Below, in pieces: positions 8,349 to 60,760 of a stretch of DNA of 64,000 nt. The stretch is from a plasmid, in the sequence record NZ_CP097382.1. One strand, given 5' to 3'. A model generated the notes under the pieces. The model made no database searches. It was not told where the DNA came from and worked only from the letters and a program-made list of their open reading frames with translations. The position numbers and the translations under genes were made by a program. Within the stretch, counting starts at the first letter, position 1; the number at the start of each line of letters is the position of its first letter.

Positions 8349-8359
8349 GGAATAACACC

Positions 8360-24907: not shown

Positions 24908-25001
24908 TTCAATTATTAATTTTATATGTCAAAACCAAGTATTGATTTTGAATAAAAAAGCTAAATGGTTTTATTAATAAAAAAGAAATAAGAAGGTCGA
25001 G

Positions 25002-27662: not shown

Positions 27663-27714
27663 AAAATAACATGATTGAAGAAGGTTATCCCTCCTTCATA
27701 CTAAGGTAAAAAAT

Positions 27715-28491: not shown

Positions 28492-28502
28492 CTTAGAACA
28501 AG

Positions 28503-29147
28503 ATGACGTTAAAGCAGATTTCAACGCAGGAGAGCCTCATGAAAGAAGCAAATAAGATCCCTCATTGTATGATGGCGTGCGGTTTAGGATTGTCCTTACT
28601 CAGTAGCACAGCACTCAGTACTGAACTCGATAAAGTGGATAACTGGGATGTCGATGGTGCTAATGGCACATTATATGTACACGGAGCTTTAACGGAAAGT
28701 GCTTGTCGATTAGCGATGTCGTCAGCATATCAAACAGTTGAACTGGGGATATTAGGCACAGGGCAATTACAGAAAGTTGGTCAAACAGGTACCCCTATCG
28801 CGGTACAACTGCGTTTAGAAGATTGTTTAAGTGGTGAAAGTCGTAATCGTAATAAACTCGGAAACTTATTGTGGAGTCCTGATATGCCTGCAATGAAAAT
28901 TCGTTTTTTGGCAGAGGCGGACAATCAAAGCCCACAATTAGCTGCCGTTACGGGGGCGCAAGGAATCGCATTACAATTGAGTAATGCTTCTTATCATCCT
29001 ATTGCAATAGGGGAATACAGTACTCCTGAGCTAGTTTCTCCAGGGCAGAATCAATTGACCTATTATATTACCCCGATCCGTACTACAGCAGGATTAAGTT
29101 CGGGAGCTTATCAGGCAATTATTCGCTTTCAGGTCAGTTATGATTAG
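28503..29147 (+). CDS. Fimbrial minor subunit
   Basis: 214 aa with a signal peptide, a pilin Cys pair and a C-terminal …RFQVSYD. Confidence 0.7.
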   Translation: MTLKQISTQESLMKEANKIPHCMMACGLGLSLLSSTALSTELDKVDNWDVDGANGTLYVHGALTESACRLAMSSAYQTVELGILGTGQLQKVGQTGTPIAVQLRLEDCLSGESRNRNKLGNLLWSPDMPAMKIRFLAEADNQSPQLAAVTGAQGIALQLSNASYHPIAIGEYSTPELVSPGQNQLTYYITPIRTTAGLSSGAYQAIIRFQVSYD

Positions 29148-41491: not shown

Positions 41492-41495
41492 TTGT

Positions 41496-42939
41496 TCATG
41501 GTTAGGAAACTGGATGAACAATTTAACGAGTCTATAAGGGTATGTTTGGTAGCAGAGTCTGTTAAAAGGTCTCTATCGTATTTAAACTTAACCATGATAA
41601 CGCGTAATTGCGCTATTTTTAGCCAAAAACGGGGGTTTTAGATACACTGATCCTAGGCGGCTGTTTGCAGCCATCGTTTTTTGGCCATTTTATCCCGCCT
41701 TTCTGACAGTAAAGTGAGTGCGTGTATGCCTTTTTCCGCACTCATAAACCGCAGTCGGTTTCCACATAAAATACATTGATACGGATCTGTGTTTAAAAAA
41801 CCTTTGATAAGGGCCGCAAAGCCGGGTTTTTCAGGTACGTTCGGATGTATCATGTCCAATGCGTCATACACTTTAGATAATAAACGCCCACGCTTGCGAT
41901 TGGCTAAAAAACCATAATAGCGGATCATCTTAAAATGCCGCGCGGGGATATGACTGACATAACGTCGTATCATTTCTTCTTGGGACAAGGTCTGTCGTCG
42001 ATATTGTTGGCTATGGTGATCATAATAATGATGGATGACTGTGCCACCGCTGTAGTGTTTCAACTGAGACGCCGAGATAGGCGGACGTTTTAGGTATCGG
42101 CCCAGATATTTCACATTATGCCAAGCGCCTCGGGTCTTTTTGGCAAAATGGAGTTTCCAATAACGTTGAAACTGTGCATTGAGGTAACGACACCAGGTTG
42201 GGTAATCGCGAATATGCCCGAAGCCAGGCAATTTATTCGGTTGTAACTGAGCATAATTGTCTCGAAGGAGCCGAATAACGGCGCTGCGCCAGACTTTCTC
42301 GACGTCTTTCTTTTTGAAAAAAATGGGTTTCCAGGTGTCATATTTTGTGAGACCGCCTCGGGTCACCGACAAATGAATATGCGGATGTTGATTAAGTTGG
42401 CGACCATAAGTATGCAAGGCACAAAAAATACCAATTTCGAGGCCATGACGTCTGGCGTGTTTGAGCATAGCTCGCGTGGCACAGCGAAATAGTTGATTAA
42501 GTAAGGTCCAGTTGTTGTTAAAAAAAGACCAAAGCAGGTGGGGCATCGTGAGGGTGATGTGTTGCCATTCGCAGTCTGGCAAAATATGGCGCTGCTGTGC
42601 GATCCATTGTTCGGTGCCCTTGAGGCCACAGGCACTGCAGGCTTTGGATTTACAGGTTTGACAAAAGAATCGCGAATGCGTGCATTCAGGAGAAGAGCAG
42701 CAATAGCGGCGAACACCCATCGCGCAGGTGCTACAAGCGAGCATCTTTTCAACACAGAGGAGTTGCCATTCATCGACAGGGTTGTTATCAATGAAGCGGT
42801 TCCATCCGTCATCGTATTGAAATAGCAGTTTAGCGGGTCTGGGAATATACATAGAGCAGAGTATAAAAGACGAGAAGGGAGTTGCCTAGAAATAGAGCGG
42901 CTCAGCCGCGATGCTCACGCCACAGGCGTGCTTATGTTC
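41496..42939 (-). mobile_element. IS91-family insertion sequence, copy 2 (identical to copy 1)
   Basis: Identical by eye (not recomputed) to 17542–18983, with a flanking GTTC at 41492–41495. Confidence 0.85.
41653..42852 (-). CDS. tnpA: IS91-family transposase
   Basis: 399 aa identical to the product of 17697–18896. Confidence 0.9.
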   Translation of the reverse strand: MYIPRPAKLLFQYDDGWNRFIDNNPVDEWQLLCVEKMLACSTCAMGVRRYCCSSPECTHSRFFCQTCKSKACSACGLKGTEQWIAQQRHILPDCEWQHITLTMPHLLWSFFNNNWTLLNQLFRCATRAMLKHARRHGLEIGIFCALHTYGRQLNQHPHIHLSVTRGGLTKYDTWKPIFFKKKDVEKVWRSAVIRLLRDNYAQLQPNKLPGFGHIRDYPTWCRYLNAQFQRYWKLHFAKKTRGAWHNVKYLGRYLKRPPISASQLKHYSGGTVIHHYYDHHSQQYRRQTLSQEEMIRRYVSHIPARHFKMIRYYGFLANRKRGRLLSKVYDALDMIHPNVPEKPGFAALIKGFLNTDPYQCILCGNRLRFMSAEKGIHALTLLSERRDKMAKKRWLQTAA

Positions 42940-42954
42940 ATCAATTCCCAATTC

Positions 42955-44303
42955 CTAAAAGCGTTTAGCATCCTCTTCCAGTTGTTCAAGCCGTTTAACA
43001 TCGGACTCAAGATCTGATGACTGGACTGTTAAATCTACTATTTTCTGCCTGACCTGAGCTAAATCGTCTACAATTTTGACAACGCCAAACTCTTGCTCAA
43101 TCTTGCCCCTGTTCAAGAATCTATCGACGACTTTTAACTGTTCACTAGAATCTTTATCAATTTCATGAATTTCATTCTGTCCAAATATTTCGATTTCTGG
43201 CAATAAATCACTAGGTACGAAGCTTGATATTTGCCCTGACATTTCTGTAATAATAGGAGATTGTCCATACCTCCTTGTAATCTGATAGTTATTACCATGC
43301 TTAGTTGTCGACTTTATCGAAAGTTTGATTTGTCCAGTGCTTAAGTTCGATTTGACTATTTTCTCGTGTTGTTCACTGGCTTGCTTGCCGATTGGAGTAA
43401 TATCGAGCGCGTAACGAATACATTCAAACCCGTACCTCTACCTCCAATAACGGTATTTAGGTGTTCGGAAAAGTCTATTTCGACGCCGCCTAAGTACCCG
43501 CCAATAAAAACAACAGACTCCAACCTAGAGTAATACTGTTCGCTGATGTCTGAGTTTAATCTGACCCTTGATTCTGGATCATTAAATGCTTGCTTAAATG
43601 CTGAAAAACTGGGTATTGTCATTTTGATTAAACACGACGCGTTGTCTTTCCTTAAAGTTTCAGGCTCTTCAATATCCTTTGCGTTAATTAACGCCATAGG
43701 AACATTTCGATGATACGCCATGTCTTTGTTTGTCAGAATTTGAAAGTTTGCTTGGTCACCTTGTTCTTTTATTGCTTGAAGTGTTGTCGGGATTTGAGCT
43801 GCAACTAATAACTCATTTTTCCAAATATTGTTCAGTTTTTGTTTGAGTACCCCATTGTCGTCTGTGCAATGGGCTGCATATATGAATCCTCCTTTATCAC
43901 GCACTTTATTTAAAATATAGTCTGCACTATGTGGTGAAGGCAATGTGCCTTGGTTAGGATCAATATTTAGTTCGTAAAGATAGTGCTCAAGATTTTTAAC
44001 TGTTTCGTCTTCATGAAAAAGACAAACTAAATGCACCTTTTCACTCGACGCAATTTCAAACCCTGGAAAAACAACAATGCCATGCTTGGACATTAAGGCT
44101 CGAATTTTGTTTACTTAGCCAACATTTCCGTGGTCTGCAAGGCCAACAACTTTGATGTTTTCTTCAAGGCAAACTTCTAGAAGTTTTTGGTTGTATTCAT
44201 CCCCAGTCAACCCTTGTTGTTTCCCTCTATAACTAATGTAGTTCGAGGGATTAACTTGAAGTGCACATTTCCAAAATTTTGCTTTAGTGAACGTTGGAAT
44301 CAT
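42955..44303 (-). pseudogene. N-terminal part of the interrupted ATPase gene, with a PHP-like phosphoesterase domain followed by the ATPase head; carries an in-frame stop and a frameshift
   Basis: Fragment 44115–44303 ends in the PHP-like motif …VVGLADHGNVG (compare AITDHGN of PHP domains) and an in-frame TAA sits at about 44113. Fragment 43356–44093 continues to …NTVIGGRGTG… (Walker-A-like, then out of frame). Fragment 42955–43242 is coiled-coil sequence running into the IS91 insertion. Confidence 0.55.
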
Positions 44304-47668: not shown

Positions 47669-48052
47669 ATGCAAATTCCCATTTTCGAAAGTCTAATTGC
47701 CTGTGGTTTTCCCAGTCCAGCTCAAGACCACGTTGAGCGTCGTTTATCGCTTGATGCCGAACTTATTCGTTATCCTGAAAGTACCTATTTTCTTCGCGCC
47801 TCTGGCGATTCTATGAAGGATGCGGGGATTTTTGACGGTGACTTATTAGTCGTTGAAAGTCACCTGACTGCCCGTCATGGGGAAATAGTGGTTGCTGAAT
47901 ACGATGGCGAATTCACCTGCAAGTACCTGCAAATCACACCGACTAAAGCGCTTATTCCTGCTAACAGTCAATTTCCCGCTATCCCCATCAATGACGATAC
48001 GGACGTGAAAATTTTCGGCGTTGTTCGTTATGCCGTGCATACCTGTCGGTAA
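47669..48052 (+). CDS. umuD: UmuD/MucA/RumA-like SOS mutagenesis protein (LexA-type self-cleaving peptidase fold)
   Basis: …[19 protein letters not shown]…[22 protein letters not shown]… carries the Ser-Lys dyad region (GDSM…K). Confidence 0.85.
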
Positions 48053-48057
48053 ATAAC

Positions 48058-49326
48058 ATGTTTGCGCTCATCGATGTCAATTCTATGTATACCTCCTGTG
48101 AATCCGTTTTCCGCCCCGATTTAAAAGGAAAGCCGATTATTTGCCTTTCGAATAATGATGGCTGTGTGATTGCGCGTTCGGCGGAGGCGAAGCCCTATAT
48201 CCGTATGGGAGCCCCTTATTTTGAAATTAAGCAGATAATCAAACAAAGGCAAGTGGCTGTATTTTCTTCAAATTATCCATTGTATGCCGATTTCAGTAAT
48301 CGATTTATGGCGGTGGTTGCTCAAATCGTGCCTCAAATTGAGGTTTACAGTATTGACGAGAGCTTTTGTAACCTGACGGGCATGAATACATTGTATTCAT
48401 GGCATGAACTTGGCCATAAATTAAAAGAGGATGTATTCCGGTGTGCACATTTGCCTGTCGGCGTGGGAATTTCCAGTACCAAAACGTTAGCTAAGCTAGC
48501 GAACCACGCCGCCAAAACGTGGAAGAATACAGGTGGTGTCGTCGATTTAAGTTCACCCAATCGTCAGAAAAAACTCATGGCACTCGTCCCGGTTGGGGAC
48601 GTTTGGGGAATAGGGCGTAAACTGGCAAAACGCCTGAATCAAAGCGGAATTGAAACTGCCTTGGATTTAAGTCGGTTGTCAACGACCCAGGCACGCCAAA
48701 TGTACTCAGTGGTATTAGAGCGAACCGTGCGCGAACTGAACGGTGAATCGTGTCTTCAGCTGGAAGAAATTGCGCCCGCTAAGCAGCAAATTATTTGCTC
48801 CCGTTCATTCGGCCATAAAGTGATGGATTATGAGTTAGTTCGCCAATCGGTGTGTGCCTTTGCTGAACGTGCAGCAGAAAAATTGAGTGAAGAAAAACAG
48901 TATTGTCGATTAGTCACATTGTGGGTGCAGAGTAGCCATTTTTCTCATCATGAGCCGCACTATTATCGACAAGAAACCCAAGCGCTCATTTATCCGACCC
49001 AAGATACACGCGAGATTATTCAGGCAGCCGTGGGGTTATTTGACAGACTTTGGCTTCCGAATGTGAAATACAGCAAAAGTGGCATATTACTCAGTGAATT
49101 TTCCCCTTCAGGGCAAGTGCAGCTGAATTTGTTTGAAAGTGGCCATGCTTTTCGCAAAAGTGGTGAACTGATGCAGACGATTGACCAGATTAATCGCGGA
49201 AAAGGGGCTATCTGGTTTGCAGGTCAGGGTGTTCAATCGCAATCGGCTTTATGGAAAATGAAGCAGCAATTTCTCTCGCCTCGCTGGACAACGCAATTCT
49301 CGGATATTCCTATCGTAAAATGCTAA
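48058..49326 (+). CDS. umuC: UmuC/MucB/RumB-like Y-family DNA polymerase (Pol V catalytic subunit)
   Basis: [18 protein letters not shown]…YSIDESF…[21 protein letters not shown]…, 422 aa, 5 bp after umuD. Confidence 0.9.
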
Positions 49327-49439
49327 TCATTGGGCGGTGATTTTTTGAGCAGAGTTGGTGTTCATTCATTAATCAGGCTATTAACCTTTTTATTAACAGG
49401 GCTATTTCAAGTTATCCACTGATTTTGTGGATACGCTTT

Positions 49440-50045
49440 TTTTGCGTTTCGGGGCAACGGCTTCATGCTGGCATTGAGCCAGGCTTAAGCCGAATGCCGG
49501 ATTGACCCCATTTACACACAGTTGGCGCAGGTTCCCCGTACACTTCCGTTCACGCGCCTGTTTGGGGCGCGTTCACTGGCTCGCCAAATGTGGAAAATGG
49601 GGACAACCGGCTTGAAAGGTCAACCGCTGCGCCTTTTTCCGTTTTCAACGTGGCGCAAAGGGCAGGGGTGCAGCTCCCTGCGGGACCGCCCCTGGTTCAC
49701 CGCTTAGCTACGCTAAGCGTTAATGGCGACTTGCCGTTCGCTTCTCTCGCTGCAAGTCGGGTGCTGTCATTTTCATCACCTGTGTGATTAATCTTTCATC
49801 GAGCACCTCCGCTTGGCCTAAAACATAGCCTCATCTCGTCATACAGCAAGCGTAAAGTGCACTCCACCAAAATTCTTGTCGCTGCGCTTTCCAACAATTT
49901 TGTCTCCGCCCTTGCTTCCTTCCTCGTCTCGGCTATGTACGGCCTTTGCAGCGGAGGAACTCAACGAAAGAAATCATTAACACGGTGGAGGATTCAAAAA
50001 TGTCATCACATCAAAACCTTGCAGCTCCAGAATCTAACGAAAGAA
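49440..50045 (+). repeat. Leading-region structured repeat, copy A (ssi/Frpo-like single-strand promoter candidate), extending into the first about 16 codons of the downstream ORF
   Basis: About 75–85% identical to 56385–56835 over roughly 450 bp. It contains nested inverted repeats (CAGGGG…TCCC-NNN-GGGA…CCCCTG and GCTTAGC-tac-GCTAAGC) and the block …AAACATAGCCTCA.CTCGTCAT.CAGCAAGCGTAAAGTGCACTCCA.CAAAATTCTTGTCGCTGCGCTTTCCAACAATTTTG.CTCCGCCCTTGCTTCCTTCCTC…. Confidence 0.7.
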
Positions 50046-50290
50046 GGGTTAAAAACCCACTGACGGATAGTCAGAAAGCCGATTTATTGCATTACATTGC
50101 GCCATTAACACGGTTATTGGATTTATTCGAGGGGGATATCTCACCTGAGTTGTACGACGAAGAAATCACGCTGCACAGTGATGCATACGATTCCAACAGT
50201 ATTTTTATGAAAGACGGTTATCCGATTGGCTTTAGTGACAATTTAAACAACATGTTCTATCTGCGTCCTGAACTGATTCAGGCATCTTAG
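50000..50290 (+). CDS. Small hypothetical protein (96 aa) whose start is supplied by repeat copy A
   Basis: MSSHQNLAAPESNERR…, whose N-terminus matches that of KlcA (MTQQQSLAAQESNER…) only because both lie inside the repeat. The remainder is unrelated. AGGATTCAAAAATG provides an RBS. Confidence 0.4.
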   Translation: MSSHQNLAAPESNERRVKNPLTDSQKADLLHYIAPLTRLLDLFEGDISPELYDEEITLHSDAYDSNSIFMKDGYPIGFSDNLNNMFYLRPELIQAS

Positions 50291-50353
50291 GTGCTAAGAG
50301 AGCCTTGTCACTCTCTTAGCAAAGACACATTAAAAACAATAGAGGTATCAATT

Positions 50354-52357
50354 ATGTCTACATTAGAAACTATCATTAACCCAAAACAACGTAAAGCAAA
50401 AAAAGGCACAAAATCCGCACAAACCGACGCGATTTATCAGGCATTGGACAGTATGGAAGCGCATGTATTGCCGTTATCGGCATTGGTACAGAGTGAACTC
50501 AATGTCCGTAAACGTCCAATCGACGAAAAAGCCTTGTCCGAACTGGCAGACAGTATTCAAGCGGTCGGGGTATTACAAAACTTGGTGGTTTACCCGATGG
50601 ACAATGACGTCTACGGGGTTGCTGCGGGTCAACGTCGTTTACTGGCGTTACAACAATTGGTGACAAAAGGGCATTTAGCGTCGAGTTTCCCTGTGCCTGT
50701 CAAAGTGGTTTCAGAGTCCGATGCGCTGATTGTTTCCCTGACGGAAAATAGCCAACGTGAAGCTATGCACCCAGCCGACCAACTTCATGCTTTTATCGAG
50801 CTACAAAAAACAGGCAAAAATGCGGCTGAAATCGGTGACTTATTAGGGGTCAGCACTCATCACGTTAAAAAATGTCTGCGTTTAGCAAACATGGCGCCTG
50901 AGCTGTTAGCCGAATTGGATGCGGATAATATTACCCTAGACCAACTGCAAGCGTTAGCCGGAACCCCTGACCATGACCGTCAAGTGATGGTGTGGAACAA
51001 TGCAATGGGTTGGAAAAAAGAGCCACCTTACTTACGTGAAGCGATTGAAGAAACCAAAACCCCCGTCGAAAATAATCGACTGGTGAAGTTTGTGGGGTTG
51101 GATGCCTACGAGCAAGCAGGGGGAACCCTTGAAATTGACCTATTTACCGAAGCAGGATTTATTGAAAACGCCCCGCTATTAGAAAAAATGGCACTAGATA
51201 AACTCAGTGCGTGTGCGGAACTGTTAGCGGATATTGAGGGTTGGCAGTTCGGTACTGCCCGTTTAGAGCGTCCGAGCTTTTACGGTAATGGTGGGGAAAC
51301 CTTGTCTCTCAGTCATGCGCCCGAGGCGGTCATTCCCCCTGAATTTGCGGATTTACTGGCTGAATTGCGTGCTCGTGAAGCGGATTTACGGGAACAAGCA
51401 TTAAATGCAGAGGAATATCATGAACAAATCGACCTTTGGCAAGCCGTGAATGATTGCGAAAATCAAATCGAGGGCATTGAAAGTCGGACTAAAAATCAAG
51501 CGTGGACAGCCGATGGAAAAGCCACAAAAGGCGTTGTTGTCTACCTTGACCGTGATGGAGAACCGTGTGTCATCCGTGGCGTCATTGACTTAGCACAGCA
51601 AGAGTCACCGTGCAGTGAAGCGGAAAGCGAAACGGAAAGTAGTGAAAGTGAGCAATCAACGACTCAAGTTGAGACGGTTTCTACCTACAGCGCAGCCTTG
51701 TGCAAAAGTCTTTCTTCGGAGCGCACATTAGCGGTTCAAGCGGCATTAACACAACATCCAAACGTGGCACTGGCGATTTTGGTTCATGATGCATGCATTC
51801 AAGTGTTTGGTTCACCGTATGCCAAAACTGCATTTAACATTAAGTTTTCGCTTTCTCAGGAAGAGTTACTCAAAAATGCCCCGACCGCCCAAGACAGTGA
51901 AGCATTGCAATTACTCAATACGCAATTTGAGTCGTGGTCAGCGCGTCTCCCTGACGCATGGCAAGCCGATTTTTCTTGGTTGTTGTCATGGGAGCAAGCG
52001 GATTTAGTCGCGTTACTGGCGTTTTGCTCTGCGCAAACGTTGAGTGAAGTCAATCATTATGCTCCGCACGATAACACGTTAGCCGAAGCCCTGCGCCCAA
52101 TTGAACAGGCAATTGCCTTTGATTTTCGTCAGTGGTGGCAGCCAACAAAAGCCAATTTCTTTGGGCGTATCAGTAAAGACCAAATCAGCGATTGTTTAGT
52201 GGATGCAGAGGCAGCAGATAAAGCCCTTGAAGCTGTCAAAATGAAGAAAGGGGATGCTGCGGAGTTGGCTGAAAATACCCTCAAAGATACCCATTGGTTG
52301 CCGAGCTGTTTTCTGAATGTAAACGCTGACACTCACCACACCGATAACGCGCAATAA
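50354..52357 (+). CDS. ParB-like nuclease-domain protein (large, about 668 aa; leading-region ParB homolog)
   Basis: An N-terminal ParB/Srx domain (…LSALVQSELNVRKRPIDEKALSELADSIQAVGVLQNLVVYP…GQRRLLALQQL…) plus an HTH (…GKNAAEIGDLLGVSTHHVKKCLRLA…) and a long acidic C-terminal region. The ATG at 50354 is preceded by AGAGGT. Confidence 0.75.
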   Translation: MSTLETIINPKQRKAKKGTKSAQTDAIYQALDSMEAHVLPLSALVQSELNVRKRPIDEKALSELADSIQAVGVLQNLVVYPMDNDVYGVAAGQRRLLALQQLVTKGHLASSFPVPVKVVSESDALIVSLTENSQREAMHPADQLHAFIELQKTGKNAAEIGDLLGVSTHHVKKCLRLANMAPELLAELDADNITLDQLQALAGTPDHDRQVMVWNNAMGWKKEPPYLREAIEETKTPVENNRLVKFVGLDAYEQAGGTLEIDLFTEAGFIENAPLLEKMALDKLSACAELLADIEGWQFGTARLERPSFYGNGGETLSLSHAPEAVIPPEFADLLAELRAREADLREQALNAEEYHEQIDLWQAVNDCENQIEGIESRTKNQAWTADGKATKGVVVYLDRDGEPCVIRGVIDLAQQESPCSEAESETESSESEQSTTQVETVSTYSAALCKSLSSERTLAVQAALTQHPNVALAILVHDACIQVFGSPYAKTAFNIKFSLSQEELLKNAPTAQDSEALQLLNTQFESWSARLPDAWQADFSWLLSWEQADLVALLAFCSAQTLSEVNHYAPHDNTLAEALRPIEQAIAFDFRQWWQPTKANFFGRISKDQISDCLVDAEAADKALEAVKMKKGDAAELAENTLKDTHWLPSCFLNVNADTHHTDNAQ

Positions 52358-52398
52358 TCAGACTGGAGACACTGCCCGAAAGGGCAGTGTGAATAATC

Positions 52399-52998
52399 AT
52401 GACAACGATTCCAAACCATTTAGCCCTTGTGCCGTTTAATGACCGTCAATATGCCGCAGCAAAAGCCATCCTTTTTGTCGAAGATAAAATGCAAAAAGGG
52501 CAATACCAAAAAAGCTATCCCTATGCGAGTGCGTTAATTCGATTTTTTACAGGGAATAAAGGGGCAATAACCGCAAAAGATTTGCACTCTACGTTGGTGT
52601 TATCTTTTGATGATAAACGTGAAATGCCGTCAAAAAATCGCTATCTTTCGGCTCTAGATACGTTTATTCAGTCCCGTGGTTATATTTGTCCATTGCCGTT
52701 ATGCGATCATCATGTGCGTGATTTTTTTCCTGAGCTGGATTACCGCGACCGTGAACGGCAGGGGCGAAAAATTCATTCTCAAGTACAGGTAGTGAGCCGT
52801 GCCCGACAAAAAGCCCAAATTAAAGCGCAGCAACAGTATCAAAATCGATTAGCCCAAGCCGAAATTGAGTTAGCCTTTATTACCCCCAGTGAGTTTAAAT
52901 CGTGGTACAACCGGTTTAATCATGATGGGATTGAAGAGTATGATTTGATTGAATTGCTTGTAAACTGGACGACGCGATTTAACAATTTAAACTTGTGA
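52399..52998 (+). CDS. Hypothetical protein (199 aa)
   Basis: Intact ORF co-directional with its neighbours. No recognised domain. Confidence 0.45.
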   Translation: MTTIPNHLALVPFNDRQYAAAKAILFVEDKMQKGQYQKSYPYASALIRFFTGNKGAITAKDLHSTLVLSFDDKREMPSKNRYLSALDTFIQSRGYICPLPLCDHHVRDFFPELDYRDRERQGRKIHSQVQVVSRARQKAQIKAQQQYQNRLAQAEIELAFITPSEFKSWYNRFNHDGIEEYDLIELLVNWTTRFNNLNL

Positions 52999-53128
52999 AA
53001 ATACCTTGATTTTGCCCCGTTGTGGTCGGCTCTCTTGGATTTCAATGAGGATATCGATACCCGATCATACGGTGAGCAATTACTGGATAATTATACCATT
53101 CCTAATAAATTAATCGGTAAAAAGGGCG

Positions 53129-53401
53129 TTGACCATGAATGAATGGAATGTGGTTTTACTCGAAACTGAAGACAGTTTGGTGCTAATGATGCGCGGTGAG
53201 CACACAAAAGAAACGGTCATTAACTCAGCAATTGCCGCGAATGAAATTTCACAGAGTGATCGAGAAACGTGGTTAGCCTGTGAAGATATCAATGTGGGTT
53301 ATTACAAGGCAGTGCCTAGAGAAGGGCATGTGACCTATTATTACCCCTCGAGTCAGGACGTTAAAGGCGCATTTTTGGCAACCAGTCTTGTGCTATTTTA
53401 A
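53129..53401 (+). CDS. Hypothetical small acidic protein (90 aa)
   Basis: Intact ORF. No recognised domain. Confidence 0.4.
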   Translation: MTMNEWNVVLLETEDSLVLMMRGEHTKETVINSAIAANEISQSDRETWLACEDINVGYYKAVPREGHVTYYYPSSQDVKGAFLATSLVLF

Positions 53402-53412
53402 GGATGAGATAA

Positions 53413-53799
53413 GTGAAAAATATCGAAAATGATGTTACTGAAATCACCGAACAGCAGCGGTTTGAGTTTGCCTATCAGGATTTATGCAAAATAAAACACG
53501 GCGTAAGAACACGCTATTTCGCTGAAAAAATGGGACTTTTCGTTTGGTTTTTGACGTTAACTGTCGGGTCTGTATGGCTGATCTTGGCGAATTTACCGAT
53601 TGTGGGCTTAGTTGTTCCCGTAGTACTGGTCTATTGGTGCTTGAGTATCACTCTTTTCATTAAATTAAAGTTATTTCTCATTTTAAATAGTGAATGGAAA
53701 CTTAATGCATTTATTACATCAATATACCCCAATGAATGTCGAATTATACCGCGCATTGCAAGAAAATGTTCGGTATACACCCGAACATTTTCTTGTTGA
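53413..53799 (+). CDS. Hypothetical membrane protein (128 aa, 2 predicted TM helices)
   Basis: Hydrophobic stretches …FVWFLTLTVGSVWLILANLPIVGLVVPVVLVYWCLSITLFI…. A second ORF (53690–53899) overlaps the 3' end in another frame. Confidence 0.35.
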   Translation: MKNIENDVTEITEQQRFEFAYQDLCKIKHGVRTRYFAEKMGLFVWFLTLTVGSVWLILANLPIVGLVVPVVLVYWCLSITLFIKLKLFLILNSEWKLNAFITSIYPNECRIIPRIARKCSVYTRTFSC

Positions 53800-54194
53800 G
53801 CTTAAGATCTGGTTAGCAAAAGAAAGTCAGTATTTCGGTGTAAAACCAGTCTATACGGTTAAAAAGAGATTGAGTTTTACTGAGCGAGTGATTAAGTAAG
53901 TTACAGCTTTAATTTTAATAACAATGAGTTAAGAAATTTTTATCATAAACATAAAATAACCCCTTATGGGTTCCTACGGCAGCTCGACGTTATCGAGCTG
54001 TCGCCTACACTCCAACTCCATTCGTTTTAGGAATGGGTTTCCGCAGAGCCGCAAGCGTCTCTGTCCTTCGGATAGCAAGCGAAACCTAACTGCACGGCAT
54101 TTCGTGCTTCGCACGGCCGTTAAAGACGCCACGCGTTGCGTGTCGGCCGATTGCCTCCTCACCCGACGGTTATTTTCTTACTATCAGCCCATTC

Positions 54195-54340
54195 GCTAGG
54201 GCTTAAACATAGCCTCAACTCGTCATCCAGCAAGCGTAAAGTGCACTCCAGCAAAATTCTTGTCGCTGCGCTTTCCAACAATTTTGCTTCCGCCCTTGCT
54301 TCCTTCCTCGTCTCAGCTATGCACGCCCTTGCCGCGACTG
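54195..54340 (+). repeat. Leading-region structured repeat, partial copy B
   Basis: It shares the conserved core …GGGCTTAAACATAGCCTCAACTCGTCATCCAGCAAGCGTAAAGTGCACTCCAGCAAAATTCTTGTCGCTGCGCTTTCCAACAATTTTGCTTCCGCCCTTGCTTCCTTCCTCGTCTCAGCTATG… with copies A and C and diverges on both sides. Confidence 0.7.
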
Positions 54341-54462
54341 AACTGACAGTAAGATGAATTAACACTTTCAAAGAGAACTACGAGGCCATCGGTGAACGTC
54401 AACACCGCCACGCCAAAACCTCCAGAAAGATGAGTTAAAAGCCAAAAACAAGGAGTATCAAC

Positions 54463-54714
54463 ATGAATTATCAAATTTTTATTGCGGAAACCCATAAGAA
54501 AAATGTGACAGGGCAAACGGATGACGTTTATCACTTCAATTCCATTGCGGAATTCTTCACTTTTCTGAAAAAAACGAAATTCGCGGAAAAAATGAACATG
54601 AATTACCAATATGCCTTAACCGATGGAACAAAAAACACCGATTTAACTTACTGCGAAATTGAAAACGCCAACCACCTTAAACCGTTTAAAAAACAGGTTC
54701 GCCAATACCGTTAA
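54463..54714 (+). CDS. Hypothetical protein (83 aa)
   Basis: It is preceded by GGAG. No recognised domain. Confidence 0.4.
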   Translation: MNYQIFIAETHKKNVTGQTDDVYHFNSIAEFFTFLKKTKFAEKMNMNYQYALTDGTKNTDLTYCEIENANHLKPFKKQVRQYR

Positions 54715-54809
54715 AGCGACCTATTGAATAGCGCGAAATCGTAACGCGCTATTCAATATCGAGCCAGTTCGATATTGACCCACCACTAAATCATAAAAGG
54801 AGAAAGAGT

Positions 54810-55148
54810 ATGTATCACGCATTAGAGCAGTACGAAACAGACAGTTACTCAGAAACCCAAAGCGCGGAATTGATGTATTGGATAGGACGTGAACAAGCGG
54901 CTAAAACTGCCCCGACAGAGATTACCTTAATGCAATTTATGGATGCGTTATCCGTTATGCCCCCGCTGGATTGGCAAGGCAATAACAATACGGAGTCCTT
55001 TAAATTGCAAGAGATGGTTTTAGGGAACGTGACTGACATTTTTGTCAAAGAGGACGAACGTTATTTTACGTTTCGGGATGTATTAACGTTATCCCATGCG
55101 CAAATTATTTCGCGTGTGCGTTGTGCTGGATTGCTGGCACAACAATGA
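54810..55148 (+). CDS. Hypothetical acidic protein (112 aa)
   Basis: It is preceded by AAAGGAG. No recognised domain. Confidence 0.45.
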   Translation: MYHALEQYETDSYSETQSAELMYWIGREQAAKTAPTEITLMQFMDALSVMPPLDWQGNNNTESFKLQEMVLGNVTDIFVKEDERYFTFRDVLTLSHAQIISRVRCAGLLAQQ

Positions 55149-55237
55149 AAAAAGCAGGCTTGCGCCTGCTTAATCCGTGCCTTGAATGACTTTAGCGAGG
55201 AACTCAAGGCATCAACTCACTCAAAGGAGTAGCTCCT

Positions 55238-55480
55238 ATGAACTCAACAATCATGGCATACGCTGCCAACCCTGTAAAGCCCCAAATGCCCGCCCTGTCA
55301 AAACGTCGGGTCGTGCGTCACGATATGACAATAAGTGAAATTGAGCCGTGTTATCGGTCAATGGCGCGGCATATCGACAAACAACTTAAACGAAAACAGC
55401 CCGTTCGCATCCCTGCAATGAATAACCAGTGTTTGGGGCAACTTTTGCGTTGTTTAGAACTGCGTAAATCGTGGATTTAA
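55238..55480 (+). CDS. Hypothetical protein (80 aa)
   Basis: It is preceded by AAAGGAG and is basic. Confidence 0.35.
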   Translation: MNSTIMAYAANPVKPQMPALSKRRVVRHDMTISEIEPCYRSMARHIDKQLKRKQPVRIPAMNNQCLGQLLRCLELRKSWI

Positions 55481-55531
55481 GTTAAATCACTGCCCCTGTT
55501 TTTGTTTCAGGGGCAGTTCTGGAGCGTCGAT

Positions 55532-56341
55532 ATGTCACAATTGAGTTTTTTTGATGTGGATTTAAGCCAACCCGCGAAAGGAGCCAGCCCTATTATCTCA
55601 GGTTTGCCCAGTAAGATAGACACAAAGACAGACAAAATAGTCGAGAAAGCAAACCTAACCACGGTTAACGCCAAATCAAAGCGCGATTTTCACAAGGAAT
55701 TTATTCAATTATTTAATCAAACGGCACGTTATCACAGTCGCTTAGACGTATTTCGAGATTTTATTCATGTTGCCGCGATTTCATTAGAAAACAGCGTAAA
55801 ACAGTGTCCTGAGTTGGAACAAACTTACTTTAACGTGATTGCGCGTTATGAAAGAGCCGATTTAGATGTATTCGCCAAATTAATGGCAATTTGTGTTAAT
55901 GCCTTAGACAGTCAAGCGACTGATTTTTTAGGGGAACTCTTTATGTCATTAGAACTTGGCGAAGGGGCATGGGGGCAGTTTTTCACCCCATTTCATATCA
56001 GCCAGCTAATGGCAAATTTTATCATTGGTGATTGCAGCAAGATAATTGAAAAAAATGGCTATATCAGTGTGTGCGAGCCTACGTGCGGGGCGGGCGGAAT
56101 GGTGATTGCCTGTGCAAATTCTGTTTTACAACAAGGCTATAACTCACAAACGCAAATGATTGCGGTGTGTACGGATATTGATGAAGTTGCCGCCCGAATG
56201 TGTTACGTCCAACTGGCATTATTGGGGATACCTGCGATTGTGAATATCGGCAACAGCTTGACCTTGGAAGTTCGCCAAACACTGTATACCCCGATGTTAA
56301 TGTTAAACTCATTCCGCTTTAAATCCTTTCTTACAGCCTAA
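55532..56341 (+). CDS. Orphan N6-adenine DNA methyltransferase-like protein (N6_Mtase fold, possibly truncated/atypical)
   Basis: …WGQFFTPFHISQLMANFII… (the FxTP target-recognition lead-in of HsdM/gamma-class MTases) and motif I …VCEPTCGAGGMVIAC…. No NPPF/Y motif IV is visible before the ORF ends, where repeat copy C begins. There is no adjacent restriction or specificity gene. Confidence 0.55.
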   Translation: MSQLSFFDVDLSQPAKGASPIISGLPSKIDTKTDKIVEKANLTTVNAKSKRDFHKEFIQLFNQTARYHSRLDVFRDFIHVAAISLENSVKQCPELEQTYFNVIARYERADLDVFAKLMAICVNALDSQATDFLGELFMSLELGEGAWGQFFTPFHISQLMANFIIGDCSKIIEKNGYISVCEPTCGAGGMVIACANSVLQQGYNSQTQMIAVCTDIDEVAARMCYVQLALLGIPAIVNIGNSLTLEVRQTLYTPMLMLNSFRFKSFLTA

Positions 56342-56384
56342 TTCACGTTATTTTCAAGGGGATTTATTCCCCTATTTGCGCATC

Positions 56385-56835
56385 GGCTTAATCCTGGCAT
56401 CGAGCCAGGCTCAATCCGACAAAGACAACCCCTGCGCCTTTTAACGCTGACGCGTGGCGCAAAGGACAGGGGTGCAAGCTCCCTAAGGGAGCCGCCCCTG
56501 ATAAACCGCTTAACGTTGTTAAGCTCAAAGGACGCCTTGCGGTTCGATTCTCTCGCCGCAAGTCGGGTTGCGTCATTTTCAGCCACTGTGTTGTTAATCT
56601 TTCGCCAAGCCCCTCCGCTCGGGCTTAAACATAGACTCAATTCGTCATCCAGCAAGCGTAAAGTGCACTCCAGCAAAATTCTTGTCGCTGCGCTTTCCAA
56701 CAATTTTGCCTCCGCCCTTGCTTCCTTCCTCATTTCGTCTATGTACGCCCTTTGCAGCGAAGGAACTCAACGAAAGAAATCATTAACCCAAAGGAGACAC
56801 TAAAATGACTCAACAACAAAGCCTTGCAGCTCAAG
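56385..56835 (+). repeat. Leading-region structured repeat, copy C (ssi/Frpo-like), extending into the klcA start
   Basis: It is homologous to copy A and includes compensatory stem changes (GCTTAAC-gttg-GTTAAGC versus GCTTAGC-tac-GCTAAGC in copy A). It ends in …AAGGAGACACTAAAATGACTCAACAACAAAGCCTTGCAGCTCAAGAATCTAACGAAAGAA. Confidence 0.7.
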
Positions 56836-57284
56836 AATCTAACGAAAGAAATGGAAAAGACGAAACTGTAATCACTGCTATTGAGGTGAAGAACGAGCGA
56901 GCCCGTTTAAAATTTTTACCTTCAAAATTAGGGCGGTATTGCATTGCATTTGAAAATGCAATCTATAACTGGATGACTCGGAATGCTGTAGCCTATAACG
57001 GCGGGTATTGGGATTTTTATACGTTGTCGAATAACGGTTTTTATTTGCAACCGACAAAAGGCTATATGCTCACCTCACCAAACGGCTTTATGGACGATGT
57101 TAGCGCCCAAGAAGCGGGGATCATTGTGACCTTAATGATGTTAAGTCATTTCTCATTCGTCACTGATGAAAAAGGGCACACAGAAGAATGTGAGCGTATT
57201 TCTGCTTATTTTCATCAACTACGGGATTTTATTTTCACATTACCCCCTGAATCACAAACAAAGATATTGAATGCCATTGATTAA
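56805..57284 (+). CDS. klcA: ArdB/KlcA-family anti-restriction protein
   Basis: …RLKFLPSKLGRYCIAFENAIYNWMTRNAVAYNGGYWDFYTLSNNGFYLQP…QEAGIIVTLMMLSHF…YFHQLRDFIFTLPPESQTKILNAID aligns with RK2 KlcA (…RLDFLPTYFG…YNGAYWHYYALSDGGFYMAP…AAGIVATLFALGQL…YHFLRGFAAGHPEAAAIYRAID). Confidence 0.85.
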   Translation: MTQQQSLAAQESNERNGKDETVITAIEVKNERARLKFLPSKLGRYCIAFENAIYNWMTRNAVAYNGGYWDFYTLSNNGFYLQPTKGYMLTSPNGFMDDVSAQEAGIIVTLMMLSHFSFVTDEKGHTEECERISAYFHQLRDFIFTLPPESQTKILNAID

Positions 57285-57350
57285 TTAAATCCTGCGCAAG
57301 TCTCGGGCTTGCGATTAATCAAACTTCATTAATTAAAGAGAGAAAAAATT

Positions 57351-58220
57351 ATGGAACAGCAAACATTATTATCGGTTGGTCAGGTTGTTTATACAAATTT
57401 ATATAATCATGGCTTGGGAGTGATCACTCAAATCCATGGAGAACAAAAACCAGATACAGTGACGAATCTATGTAATGTCATTGTAAGTGGAGGCAACGCA
57501 GAATTTGATATTGTATTTTACAATGGTGATAAATCAAATCGCTTACCAGAATCTGTTTTAAGAGGGGGGATTCAGTGGGAAGTTAAAAATGAAATTGTTG
57601 ATAATGAAACAATTGAATCATTAATTAAACAATCAGAAGAATTCGAACAAACGGAAAAATCTGAGGAAGAAAAAAAACAAATCGAATTTAATCAAGGTGT
57701 CGAATTTCAAAAAAATAATAATCAATATTCACACTTAACCCAGATAACCGCTAATTCAGACAATAAAGTAAAAATAGTGGGTAAAAATATTCGTGCAGAG
57801 TTAAAAAAACATTTTCCAAAAACTAAATTTTCAGTTCGTAAACAATATTACAGTTCTTATTATGTATCATGGACAGATGGCCCGACAGTGGATGAAGTCG
57901 ACTCGATTGTCAAAAAATATAAAACGTCACGCTTCGATTGCTATACTGATTACTCTTACAATGAAAGCTCACCATTTAATATGGTTTATGGTGGTGCTGA
58001 TTATGTTTTTACAAATCGTCATTACAGTGATGAAATAATCGCGTTGGCAATCAAATCACTTATTGATAAATATGGCGAGTCTTATGAGTTTGATACGACG
58101 TTAATGACCGTTGAAAATTATCATCAAGGTAAGTTATACAAAATTGGACGAGAACAAATTATTGGAAATGATGGGATAGGTGGGGAAATTGGTCGAGAAT
58201 TAAGAAAAACCAGTTATTAA
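57351..58220 (+). CDS. Hypothetical protein (289 aa)
   Basis: It is the last leading-region ORF before the oriT-proximal genes. It contains …YYVSWTDGPTVDEVDSIVKKYKTSRFDCYTDYSYNESSPFNMVYGGADYVFTNRHYSDEII…. No confident family assignment. Confidence 0.45.
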   Translation: MEQQTLLSVGQVVYTNLYNHGLGVITQIHGEQKPDTVTNLCNVIVSGGNAEFDIVFYNGDKSNRLPESVLRGGIQWEVKNEIVDNETIESLIKQSEEFEQTEKSEEEKKQIEFNQGVEFQKNNNQYSHLTQITANSDNKVKIVGKNIRAELKKHFPKTKFSVRKQYYSSYYVSWTDGPTVDEVDSIVKKYKTSRFDCYTDYSYNESSPFNMVYGGADYVFTNRHYSDEIIALAIKSLIDKYGESYEFDTTLMTVENYHQGKLYKIGREQIIGNDGIGGEIGRELRKTSY

Positions 58221-58328
58221 AGAAAACGCGCCATAAAGGCGCGTTTCTCGTTTTAATACTAAGCCACATGCATTACTTAATATTAAACGTGATTATAGCG
58301 TTAAAAATAGAAAGTAAAAGGAGTAAGT

Positions 58329-58787
58329 TTAGTTATTTTTTTTAATGTTAAGATAAATGTGATAGACCTCAAGCGCATATTGATTTCTTTTTTGTTCTTG
58401 AGCCTCGGATTTTTTCAACCCTGCATTATAAGCCCCTACGCCTTTCCAGATATCCCCTTGTATACGAATAAATTTAGCGAGATAAAACGCGCCCGTATAA
58501 ATATTCATACACGGATCTAACCTTAATTGATTTTCGGTAATGCCATGCTGTGCTAATTCGTTAAAGTTTTGCGAATGAATTTGCATTAAGCCAATAGCGT
58601 ATCGCGTCGGTGAAGCTTGGTTAATCGCATTTGGTTGGAATGAGCTTTCACGAAAGGCAACTGCGCGTAATAAATCAGGGTCAATTTGATAATCATTTCC
58701 TGCTTTATCATAGCAATCAAACGAAAATGAAAAAGGCGAAAAAAATAACGCAATGAGAATACAGATCATTCGCATATAAAACCCCAT
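58329..58787 (-). CDS. Lytic transglycosylase (SLT domain), conjugation-associated (F orf169/geneX, P19-like)
   Basis: 152 aa with a signal peptide and the SLT catalytic region …AVAFRESSFQPNAINQASPTRYAIGLMQIHSQN…YNAG…. It lies adjacent to the oriT-like region, as in F-like plasmids. Confidence 0.8.
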   Translation of the reverse strand: MGFYMRMICILIALFFSPFSFSFDCYDKAGNDYQIDPDLLRAVAFRESSFQPNAINQASPTRYAIGLMQIHSQNFNELAQHGITENQLRLDPCMNIYTGAFYLAKFIRIQGDIWKGVGAYNAGLKKSEAQEQKRNQYALEVYHIYLNIKKNN

Positions 58788-59249
58788 TTAATAATAAGTT
58801 CTCTTAGCTCAGAATCGCCCATTTTAATAAAAAAATAAAGCACTATTTAAATGCAAGCCAAAAGAAAGGAGGAGCAATAAATATGCTCCTCTGAAAGAAA
58901 GAACTCACACACTACGCAAAATTTCATTTCGCAAGAATTTATCATAAAATCAGTGTGTTAATTAAAAATAAATGGGTGAAAAATTTATAATTTGTAGTGC
59001 TAAGCCCATTGCTAGCCCAATGATAGCGTCTATGTGTGGGCTAAATAGATGCACTTTGTGTGTATTGTGAATAATATCAAATAAATAAAATTTCTTACTA
59101 AATTTAGTGGTCTAATGGTGGTCTATTGTAATATACTGTTTATATGTTATTTATTTTTTATGATTGTATTTGATGGGCTAGTTGTGGGCTGTATGAGATT
59201 GCATCACAGCCCACAACTAGCGGCTAGTGAAAACAAAGGAAATAAAAGA
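58788..59249. other. Candidate oriT / traM promoter region
   Basis: An AT-rich, ORF-free interval between the lytic transglycosylase gene and traM. It carries direct repeats TGCTAAGCCCA/TGCTAGCCCA (about 59010–59035) and an inverted repeat at 59177–59221. Confidence 0.5.
59177..59221. promoter_or_regulatory. Perfect 16-bp inverted repeat GCTAGTTGTGGGCTGT-N13-ACAGCCCACAACTAGC upstream of traM
   Basis: Read directly from the sequence. It ends 28 bp before the traM ATG, and TraM-type proteins autoregulate through inverted-repeat sites in this position. Confidence 0.5.
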
Positions 59250-59950: not shown

Positions 59951-60088
59951 TTTAATCTGTAAATATAGGTATATTTATCTTAAGTAATTAATATTACTTA
60001 AGTCAATAAATTTAAGAATCGCCCAATAAAGGAGTCCTACCTCCCTTATTGAGCTAAACACATAACCGAAGCCTGAGAGGATGGTTAC

Positions 60089-60760
60089 ATGTCTATTCAT
60101 GATCCTATTGATCTCGATGCGATAAAACAAGCTGTTTTTCGCAAAAACCTGCCTGATTTTTTAAAACATGCTTATTTTTGGATGATAACTGACCTAAATA
60201 ACCATGTTTTATCCTGTAGCTCACCTGAAAATGTTAACTCAATTTTAAACTCCCAAAAAATTCAGCAAGCCAATAATGGTTTTACTCTTTCATCCATTGA
60301 ATTAGTTATCCCTACACATGGGCATATTGCAATAGCATTAGAGGTCATTTCTTATCAAATGTTCATAAATAACCAATTAGTCATCTTGAAAATATACAAT
60401 ATGCTGAAAAATACGAATGTCAAATTTAGAATATTTCATGCTGATTTTTTTATAAGAAATGATCGATTTGATAATAAATTAGACTTTATTAATTCGATTA
60501 ATCGATTGAAATATAAAAAACCATGGGAAAGTCTAACCGATCACGAATGGGCTGTTGCATGGTTAGTTATTCATCGTTTAACAAACCCTGAGATATCTAA
60601 TGTTATGGATAAAAGTATTAATACTATTAAATCTACAGTTAGTCGTATTTTAGGTATTTACAAACTAGAACTTTATGATCGAAATTTATTATCTGATGTT
60701 GGATTATATTTAAATTGGGATTGTTATGTTCCATTATCTCTTATAAAAAATACTGTATAA
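60089..60760 (+). CDS. traJ: TraJ-like transfer activator (LuxR/GerE-type C-terminal HTH)
   Basis: 223 aa located between traM and traY. The C-terminal …LTDHEWAVAWLVIHRLTNPEISNVMDKSINTIKSTVSRILGIYKL… is a LuxR-type HTH. F-family TraJ proteins are very divergent, so the call rests on position and size. Confidence 0.55.
   Translation: MSIHDPIDLDAIKQAVFRKNLPDFLKHAYFWMITDLNNHVLSCSSPENVNSILNSQKIQQANNGFTLSSIELVIPTHGHIAIALEVISYQMFINNQLVILKIYNMLKNTNVKFRIFHADFFIRNDRFDNKLDFINSINRLKYKKPWESLTDHEWAVAWLVIHRLTNPEISNVMDKSINTIKSTVSRILGIYKLELYDRNLLSDVGLYLNWDCYVPLSLIKNTV

Follow-up and report, generated by a model that had tools for sequence, protein, structure and literature searches.

Single-stranded DNA promoters of the Frpo/ssi type, reportedly described by Masai and Arai in 1997 and grouped into classes 1-3 (PMC12672017), are found 5′ of operons in the leading regions of conjugative plasmids. 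In F and IncI1 plasmids, such promoters cause leading genes to be expressed in a short burst prior to synthesis of the complementary strand, with start sites mapped inside the hairpins, and the Frpo element of F can in addition prime DNA synthesis (PMC12672017). In leading regions, anti-defense genes are statistically overrepresented, and a third of the most abundant families there are uncharacterized and have already been proposed as anti-defense candidates (PMC11541004); the general idea that uncharacterized open reading frames (ORFs) of leading regions are such candidates is already in print. A different role has been published for HerB (YfjB of F), a ParB/CTP clamp that is induced zygotically, binds to the chromosome of the recipient, and transiently reprograms host transcription (PMC13370423). 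Here we analyze a 64,000-nt stretch of a plasmid (sequence record NZ_CP097382.1), which we call the window and whose positions supply all coordinates, with emphasis on a block of 11 ORFs at 50000-58220. The original prediction, made from the letters of this DNA, was that the block is a leading region in which known anti-defense genes are interleaved with eight unassigned ORFs, themselves candidates for undescribed anti-defense proteins. We find it probable that 47.7-59.2 kb is the leading region of an F-like (mating pair formation type F, MPF-F) Providencia conjugative plasmid, an establishment and anti-defense island with three hairpin-led operons. This reading is carried by genes that are real and conserved, by their family assignments, by covariation in the hairpins, and by synteny with F.

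Comparison with described leading regions

The + strand from 47.7 to 59.6 kb holds umuD and umuC followed by the block, and 3′ of the block are an SLT lytic transglycosylase gene on the - strand, a gap of ~460 nt, traM, a traJ-like gene, traY, traA, traL, traE, and traK. The genes run in the order and orientation seen in the leading regions of F and a Klebsiella IncFII plasmid, as far as SLT, traM, traJ, traY, and traA, which bears out the assignment as a leading region, and annotation of orthologues agrees with the earlier placement of umuDC-like genes upstream. In both comparison plasmids the leading genes are directed towards oriT and are co-oriented with traM. The Providencia block sits beside the presumed oriT, on the side opposite the tra operon, in the same order as in F. 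Matches to the block were found in 56 PLSDB plasmids, all from Providencia and mostly at 80-95% identity (~90% for the best full-length matches), and 31 of these 56 cover at least 80% of it.

The leading region of F (NC_002483, ~53-66 kb) shares the order small ORF, HerB/YfjB, psiA, Frpo, a 95-amino-acid (aa) ORF, SLT (-), oriT, and traM, and it also contains an ArdB/KlcA homologue. F further has ssb, yfjA (DUF905), psiB, hok/sok, DUF932 (ygeA), DUF1380, and a ParB-methylase, none of which is in the window. The window in turn has the first ORF of the block (orfA), ORFs of 112 and 80 aa, a gene for a short protein that we call the half-methyltransferase, and a gene with LPD30 and LPD29 domains, for which tblastn with an E limit of 10 gave no match in F 48.0-68.5 kb (20.5 kb).

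The islands of Samuel et al. (PMC11541004) have in common with the Providencia block their oriT and umuDC bounds, co-orientation of genes for transcription from the transferred strand, Frpo-type hairpins before operons, klcA/ardB, psiA, an orphan methyltransferase-like gene, and interleaved uncharacterized ORFs. The Providencia block differs in that it has no ssb, psiB, anti-CRISPR, or toxin-antitoxin genes. The umuDC genes (47669-49326) run in the same orientation as the leading-region genes, as in ~10% of the cases in that study, whereas ~90% of leading-region umu operons are oppositely oriented (PMC11541004). The genus Providencia does not occur in the available portions of the supplementary files of PMC11541004.

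Three hairpin repeats precede the predicted operons

The eight unassigned ORFs had been described as co-directional and tightly spaced, with sequences resembling ribosome-binding sites (RBSs). They are co-directional, and a GGAG/AAGGAG-like ribosome-binding sequence lies 5′ of seven of the eight, but tight spacing does not hold: gaps of 620, 663, and 463 nt, the sole large intergenic gaps, each contain one copy of a structured repeat that had not been mentioned. The core of the repeat is ~145 nt and is 90-92% identical between copies. When the - strand is folded as single-stranded DNA, each copy forms an imperfect hairpin of ~190 nt, with z-scores of -4 to -7 relative to shuffled sequences, and when the - strand was scanned over 44.5-61.3 kb by folding 300-nt segments, no other regions fell below -55 kcal/mol (mean -30.9, standard deviation 10.3). 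An alignment of 17 distinct copies of the repeat, drawn from eight relatives as well as the window, gave a consensus hairpin of 53 pairs with 96% of cells paired, and compensatory changes occur at 12 pairs, compared with 5.1 ± 1.5 in shuffled alignments (0 of 500 reached 12) and 0-5 in slid controls. The - strand fold of the repeats, their conservation, and their placement can thus be taken as shown.

The hairpin arm that would serve as the non-template strand carries TTGCTG-N16-TATGTT in all three copies, at the same place in the stem. With Frpo/ssi promoters the repeats share a long imperfect hairpin on what would be the transferred strand and an A/T-rich apical stem; the weak -35/-10-like hexamers are candidates for elements rebuilt in the stem 5′ of leading-region operons, and copy 3 lies directly 5′ of ardB/klcA just as the class 2 promoters of pESBL lie directly 5′ of klcA (PMC12672017). 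When compared with the Frpo sequences in Supplementary file 4 of PMC11541004, the copies matched the S. enterica candidate 'Frpo* 5' at 68-69% identity over ~150 nt in the transferred-strand orientation (E 1e-13 to 1e-15 in this small database), the best match being 69% over 153 nt with E 1e-15. A weak match to ssiD of F sits just 5′ of the F homologue of an 83-aa ORF, as copy 2 does here, and is suggestive of homology to the proven Frpo of F. With blastn against PLSDB, the repeat itself matched Providencia plasmids only. By analogy with F and IncI1, we infer the strand polarity, promoter activity, and expression timing of the hairpins.

The repeat also spans the RBS and first ~19 codons of both orfA and ardB (49997-50056 and 56802-56861), and therefore their otherwise unrelated products share an N-terminal leader (MSSHQNLAAPESNER versus MTQQQSLAAQESNER), suggesting that gene cassettes have been swapped by recombination within the repeats. 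A repeat running through the starts of two unrelated genes is the pattern expected from cassette exchange, and, together with the weakness of the hexamers and the priming activity of F Frpo (PMC12672017), it raises the alternative that the repeats are not promoters but mark a hotspot of recombination or a junction between cassettes, serve only as priming (ssi) signals, act as terminators or insulators, or are elements similar to repetitive extragenic palindromes (REP-like). We consider this unlikely given the strand of the repeats, their position just 5′ of each operon, their likeness to published Frpo-type candidates, and a -35/-10 pair that recurs unchanged, at one position of the stem, in every copy; moreover, priming and promoter activity can coexist. 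Open frames are present within the structured repeats at 56338-56733 (-), 54136-54357 (+), and 49857-50063 (+), and similar frames are annotated as hypothetical in some relatives, though they are probably not genes.

The small ORFs are conserved genes

All eight ORFs of the original prediction are present on the + strand where it had placed them, and their conservation in related plasmids holds for each one. In orthologues from 5-7 Providencia plasmids that differ at 5-13% of bases all eight are uninterrupted, and the ratio of nonsynonymous to synonymous polymorphism (pN/pS) is 0.06-0.47, with synonymous changes far in excess. The low pN/pS and the open frames in relatives indicate that these are real genes under constraint far above that of chance ORFs. 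They are short, and five have no match in a family library, as would be expected of chance open frames in non-coding DNA; we regard that explanation as extremely improbable, since frames open in all of these diverged plasmids and the pN/pS values effectively refute it, and three of the ORFs have protein homologues in ~1,100 to at least 5,000 plasmids of other genera.

The description of all eight as unassigned stands for five intact small ORFs, those starting at 50000, 53135, 54463, 54810, and 55238. It does not stand for 52399-52998, which is psiA, or for 57351-58220, which encodes the LPD30-LPD29 protein, and 53413-53799 is a frameshifted remnant. Three of the five families are the widespread ones noted above and the other two are essentially confined to Providencia. 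Pfam, NCBIfam, and PHROGs gave nothing usable for the five, the sole match being a weak one between the 88-aa ORF and phrog_28696 (E 5e-4), a PHROG without assigned function. Searches of PDB sequences returned nothing significant for orfA, a profile of the 112-aa ORF, the 80-aa ORF, or the LPD protein, and a homologue search with the 80-aa and 112-aa ORFs returned Providencia sequences only, with shallow alignments. The expectation that the small ORFs encode anti-defense proteins gained nothing from the searches of profile libraries and PDB sequences, as none resembles a known anti-defense protein in Pfam, NCBIfam, PHROGs, or PDB sequences.

Operon 1 contains a HerB homologue

The first predicted operon, behind copy 1, would comprise orfA, herB, psiA, the 88-aa ORF, and a membrane-protein gene. 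Homologues of orfA occur in 41 plasmids, all from Providencia, and a full HMMER search found four related clusters among 1.84 billion representative proteins; one distant relative is on a 921-nt contig with no useful gene context. The position of orfA is that of yfjA (DUF905) in F.

The following gene had been read as encoding a 668-aa anti-defense protein with a ParB-like nuclease domain. Its ParB_N and HTH_ParB domains are indeed present; however, the product is 667 aa long and is a homologue of HerB/YfjB. BLASTP aligned it with F YfjB over its full length (residues 1-665 versus 1-647, 38% identity, E 2e-122), and the alignment spans all four domains (D1-D4), the published HerB criterion being at least 80% coverage of each domain (PMC13370423). 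The CTP-binding motifs are kept, with GQRRLLA versus GGRRLAA at Box II and LTENS versus MTENG, including the conserved glutamate, at Box III. Two of the three basic residues that contact DNA in F YfjB/HerB (PMC13370423) are conservatively kept in the Providencia protein, whereas the third, R168, is His and the acidic linker differs. Because the published role of HerB is host reprogramming and not nuclease or anti-defense activity, the ParB-like protein should not be counted as a known anti-defense nuclease.

PsiA matches its family profile, but the copy in the window is truncated at residue 200 of ~245 and is not next to psiB. A premature TGA at codon 200 (52996-52998) replaces the CGA or CGG of relatives, which reach 240-248 aa, and the ancestral frame would extend to ~53140. 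The ORF previously placed at 53129-53401 is a conserved gene, although its start is more likely ATG 53135, as annotated in relatives, than TTG 53129. Its homologues come from Providencia (39 plasmids) and Serratia (one plasmid). Its start in relatives overlaps the stop codon of psiA, and with the nonsense codon in psiA its translation may therefore be uncoupled here. The membrane-protein gene is broken by one additional T (near 53711) relative to three relatives, the intact form being 160-161 aa; it is also interrupted in one related plasmid and missing from two more. Together, the psiA nonsense codon and this frameshift reflect either decay of operon 1 or sequencing errors.

Widespread small ORFs in operon 2

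The second predicted operon, behind copy 2, would consist of the 83-aa, 112-aa, and 80-aa ORFs and the half-methyltransferase gene. Homologues of the 83-aa ORF are in 1,133 plasmids, F included (F locus match 16066-16290, E 3e-9), where the homologue belongs to the Frpo-driven ygeA operon. Those of the 112-aa ORF are in 1,713 plasmids, 1,323 of them typed as conjugative, from Klebsiella, Enterobacter, Serratia, Pseudomonas, and others, with 55% identity to a Serratia homologue. The AlphaFold2 model of the 112-aa ORF, the sole model for a small ORF, has a predicted local distance difference test score (pLDDT) of 55, too uncertain for use. For the 80-aa ORF, the number of plasmids with homologues is at least 5,000. 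Genes of the 112-aa and 80-aa families are neighbors in a Klebsiella IncFII plasmid, just 5′ of an antirestriction gene. Two Klebsiella paralogues of the 80-aa ORF match HU-CCDC81_euk_1 at 5.7e-5 and 7e-4, both below the gathering score, and some homologues in this family carry HU-type names from the Prokaryotic Genome Annotation Pipeline (PGAP). The link of the 80-aa ORF to the HU fold is weak and finds no support in the Providencia sequences, with no HU profile match in the window protein or in the 10 Providencia homologues scanned.

On the opposite strand, a sequence covering the RBS and start codon of the 80-aa ORF matches the Rfam model AS-pc01, the antisense RNA of IncFII plasmid pHK01. 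The match spans the whole model with the terminator stem well matched, including a terminator-like hairpin at 55171-55152, although its score is below the gathering threshold. Such an RNA may be an antisense regulator of the 80-aa ORF.

Several of these properties fit a reading in which the small ORFs aid establishment by means other than anti-defense, such as binding DNA or acting as chaperones for the incoming strand, regulating the early burst, reprogramming the host alongside HerB, or helping complementary-strand synthesis. HerB is a precedent, two of the small ORFs have strongly basic products (pI 9.0 and 10.4), and the F homologue of the first of these is driven by Frpo. The sub-threshold HU-domain match in Klebsiella homologues and their PGAP names point towards the same reading, and the possible antisense RNA over the start of the 80-aa ORF suggests tight regulation. 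We treat this as a genuine but tentative possibility. The HU match is absent from the Providencia proteins (window protein and 10 of 10 homologues scanned), a DNA-binding domain was found in none of the ORFs, and the evidence is no stronger than that for an anti-defense role.

A half-methyltransferase family without a catalytic motif

The last gene of operon 2 was predicted to encode an orphan N6-methyltransferase-like protein lacking motif IV, and this was correct, as NPPY is absent. Across the family, motif X (GQFFTP), motif I (EPTCGAGG), and the aspartate of motif II hardly vary, and motifs X and I align to M.BseCI and EcoR124 HsdM. In place of the (D/N)PP(Y/F) of motif IV, the family consensus after strand 4 is Y-T-P-x-x-Y, with T253 invariant, and the protein ends ~16 residues past strand 4. 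Compared with HsdM and other gamma-class N6-adenine methyltransferases, it thus shares motifs X and I, the acidic residue of motif II, and an HsdM-like N-terminal helical domain, while NPPY, motifs V-VIII, and the target-recognition domain are absent. The AlphaFold2 model (pLDDT 84.5 overall, confident from residue 48) shows the HsdM-like helical domain followed by four strands and no seven-stranded fold. Its best structural matches are 2f8l, M.BseCI, and HsdM chains, in which 97-190 residues are covered of targets 323-916 residues long. From its motifs and this model, the protein would bind S-adenosylmethionine (SAM) but would be unable to methylate DNA alone.

The family, with 298 matches, is widespread in Enterobacterales and uniformly 220-290 aa long, and so the short form is not a local truncation, a possibility that we rejected. 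It matches the unannotated phage family phrog_5696 end to end (5e-77). In the Klebsiella IncFII plasmid, YdiA/DUF4942 occupies an equivalent position, each gene lying directly after a gene of the 80-aa family; hhalign found no profile relation between the two.

Gene neighborhoods place the half-methyltransferase in recurrent company. A Serratia F-like contig has the 83-aa ORF, the 112-aa ORF, a short ORF, and the half-methyltransferase in kept order, 3′ of ssb, herB, psiB, and psiA, and a repeat fragment precedes this gene series. In a Yersinia plasmid (locus 3946-7591) the gene is between umuDC and higBA, and in a Salmonella integrative and conjugative element (ICE; locus 4052-6660) it follows ArdB and ArdC and adjoins a TraI_2 relaxase. 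The association with such genes spans different conjugative backbones and is consistent, through guilt by association, with a role against restriction.

Operon 3 and a possible anti-defense role for the small ORFs

The third predicted operon, behind copy 3, would hold ardB/klcA and the LPD30-LPD29 gene and would be closed by a terminator-like hairpin at 58224-58246, directly 3′ of the latter. ArdB/KlcA had been recognized in the original prediction, and PF03230 confirms it. The Pfam domain occupies residues 64-159. As with other ArdB/KlcA genes, this one is in a leading region, two genes from the SLT gene bordering the oriT gap; the Providencia form differs by a 63-residue N-terminal extension, the first ~19 codons of which are common to orfA. 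Association of the LPD30 with the LPD29 domain is on record for polyvalent-protein systems, both in phages and in conjugative elements (PMC5512222). A natural deletion is known in this part of the island: in a 57-kb P. alcalifaciens plasmid (NZ_OU659128.1), a deletion at locus positions 8243-8444, corresponding to 53.2 to 57.7 kb of the window, leaves the beginning of the 88-aa ORF fused to the central part of the LPD gene and removes operon 2, repeat copies 2 and 3, and ardB. Maintenance of at least that plasmid therefore does not require the middle of the island.

The five small ORFs, perhaps along with the half-methyltransferase and the LPD protein, might directly inhibit restriction-modification, CRISPR-Cas, or other recipient defenses. 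They share an island with ArdB/KlcA and lie behind Frpo-like candidate promoters, leading regions are enriched for such genes (PMC11541004), and three of the ORFs are small and acidic (pI ~4.5), like many anti-restriction and anti-CRISPR proteins. In addition, the half-methyltransferase family occurs beside ArdB and ArdC in the Salmonella ICE and beside umuDC and HigBA in the Yersinia plasmid, and the order of the 83-aa ORF, 112-aa ORF, and half-methyltransferase is conserved in Serratia. We nonetheless find this doubtful, given that the ORFs do not resemble known anti-defense proteins in the four libraries searched, that the sole structure model for a small ORF is unusable, that HerB in the same operon set shows that leading genes can reprogram the host instead, and that a natural relative exists without the whole 53.2-57.7 kb segment. 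Only association makes anti-defense roles plausible. Location and early-promoter context, the sole evidence for such a role, fit establishment, DNA-binding, or regulatory roles equally.

A narrower proposal is that operon 2, comprising the hairpin, the 83-aa, 112-aa, and 80-aa ORFs, and the half-methyltransferase, is an unrecognized anti-restriction module built on a dead, SAM-binding, HsdM-like decoy. This half-domain might enter type I (or BREX/type IIG) methyltransferase-restriction complexes as a decoy or poison subunit, or might sequester SAM locally, with the small partners assisting. The Serratia gene order and the ArdB, ArdC, and umuDC neighbors elsewhere fit this proposal, which we rate as improbable.

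Other features of the window

Coordinates of the island and its borders are collected in Table 1. Just 5′ of the traJ-like gene, at 59982-60095, are sub-threshold matches to the traJ 5′ untranslated region (+, 36.1 bits) and to FinP (-, 32 bits), which are consistent with an F-type FinOP fertility-inhibition circuit. Farther from the block, an IS91-family transposase gene (41653-42852) is flanked on the - strand (40220-44303) by an AAA_21-type ATPase ORF (40220-41521) on one side and, on the other, by two collinear ORFs of no assigned family (43356-44093 and 44115-44303, both -); the IS91-family element may interrupt a single larger gene. A plasmid-borne chaperone-usher fimbrial operon, with usher, PapD-like chaperone, and fimbrial subunit, is at 24344-29147.

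Table 1. Features of the Providencia leading region and its borders, in order along the window
Feature	Position	Strand	Remarks
umuD	47669-48052	+	ORF; orthologues annotated umuD; part of the island's distal boundary
umuC	48058-49326	+	ORF; orthologues annotated umuC; part of the island's distal boundary
Frpo-like repeat copy 1	49437-49994; main hairpin 49784-49994	-	Hexamers 49849-49822, paired with template arm 49912-49939; predicted start ~49946
orfA	50000-50290	+	96 aa, acidic (pI 4.5); pN/pS 0.10-0.39; lineage-restricted
herB/yfjB homologue	50354-52357	+	ParB-like CTP-binding clamp, 667 aa from ATG at 50354; ParB_N and HTH_ParB
psiA, truncated	52399-52998	+	PF06952 E 3.7e-20; NF010258 E 1.6e-46 (below its curated cut-off)
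88-aa ORF	53135-53401	+	Small, acidic (pI 4.5); 90 aa from TTG at 53129; pN/pS 0.06-0.14
Membrane-protein gene remnant	53413-53899	+	Frameshifted; reads as two ORFs, 53413-53799 and 53690-53899
Frpo-like repeat copy 2	main hairpin 54168-54377	-	Hexamers 54233-54206, paired with 54296-54323; predicted start ~54330
83-aa ORF	54463-54714	+	Small, basic (pI 9.0); homologue of the 95-aa F ORF that follows F Frpo/ssiD
112-aa ORF	54810-55148	+	Small, acidic (pI 4.5); widespread leading-region family; pN/pS 0.12-0.17
Possible antisense RNA	55149-55243	-	Rfam AS-pc01-related; 34.9 bits versus gathering score 79
80-aa ORF	55238-55480	+	Small, basic (pI 10.4); very widespread family
Half-methyltransferase	55532-56341 (ATG used by relatives)	+	269 aa; N6_Mtase; HsdM-type N-terminal helical domain and SAM-fold strands 1-4
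Frpo-like repeat copy 3	56363-56800; main hairpin 56590-56800	-	Hexamers 56655-56628, paired with 56718-56745; predicted start ~56752
ardB/klcA-family antirestriction gene	56805-57284	+	159 aa; PF03230 E 4.9e-19, profile positions 3-92 of 92
LPD30+LPD29 protein	57351-58220	+	289 aa; PF18850 residues 7-94; PF18847 residues 145-226
SLT lytic transglycosylase	58329-58787	-	Counterpart of F gene X/orf169; last gene before the oriT gap
Presumed oriT region	58788-59249		Between the SLT gene and traM; synteny with F

Discussion

We propose that the island works in the manner of those in F and IncI1. By analogy with these plasmids, the - strand would reach the recipient first, in single-stranded form, and the hairpins would re-form a duplex promoter, TTGCTG-N16-TATGTT, usable by host RNA polymerase. 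A burst of transcription from the three operons would precede complementary-strand synthesis, and the operons would fall silent once duplex formation abolishes the hairpins. Likely products of this burst would be an ArdB/KlcA-type inhibitor of type I restriction, a HerB-type ParB/CTP clamp on the host chromosome, PsiA (defective here), a SAM-binding half-methyltransferase, and five small conserved proteins. The biochemical role of every product of the block is one that we infer.

A number of observations weigh against the interpretation of 47.7-59.2 kb as a hairpin-led leading region of this kind. The sequence pattern of the F nic site is absent from the window, and transfer polarity comes solely from synteny. 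MOB-suite types 53 of the 56 related Providencia plasmids as non-mobilizable; these relatives nevertheless carry traM, traY, traA, traL, traE, traK, and traB, and their relaxase or oriT is probably one that the typing scheme misses. Neither psiB nor ssb has a homologue anywhere in the 64 kb, although psiA and herB are both present; in the F, Klebsiella, and Serratia relatives, herB is flanked by ssb and psiB, which are the usual partners of Frpo. The hexamers match the consensus at 3 of 6 and 4 of 6 positions, candidates of the 'Frpo* 5' type were flagged as low certainty by Samuel et al. themselves, and the match to F ssiD (60% over 176 nt, 32.6 bits) equals the best of 200 shuffles against 39 kb (F and Klebsiella loci). 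Lastly, given the lesions in psiA and the membrane-protein gene, part of the island may be in decay.

The architecture itself is known, as every element has a published counterpart: the island with its umuDC bound, single-strand promoters, HerB, PsiA, ArdB/KlcA, and LPD domains. Specific to this locus are the Providencia lineage, a covarying repeat family distant from proven Frpo, the absence of ssb and psiB from the window, two lineage-restricted small acidic genes, and a conserved operon ending in a half-methyltransferase. With this block, the published leading-region islands gain a Providencia/Morganellaceae example, and many of the related plasmids are from clinical isolates, with two named for NDM and one for CTX-M. 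It offers three structurally supported candidate single-strand promoters with predicted start sites, five intact and constrained small genes, three of them common to thousands of Klebsiella and E. coli plasmids, and a conserved half-methyltransferase family without the catalytic motif that recurs beside anti-restriction genes. A phenotype for the widespread families, if found, would reach well beyond this plasmid.

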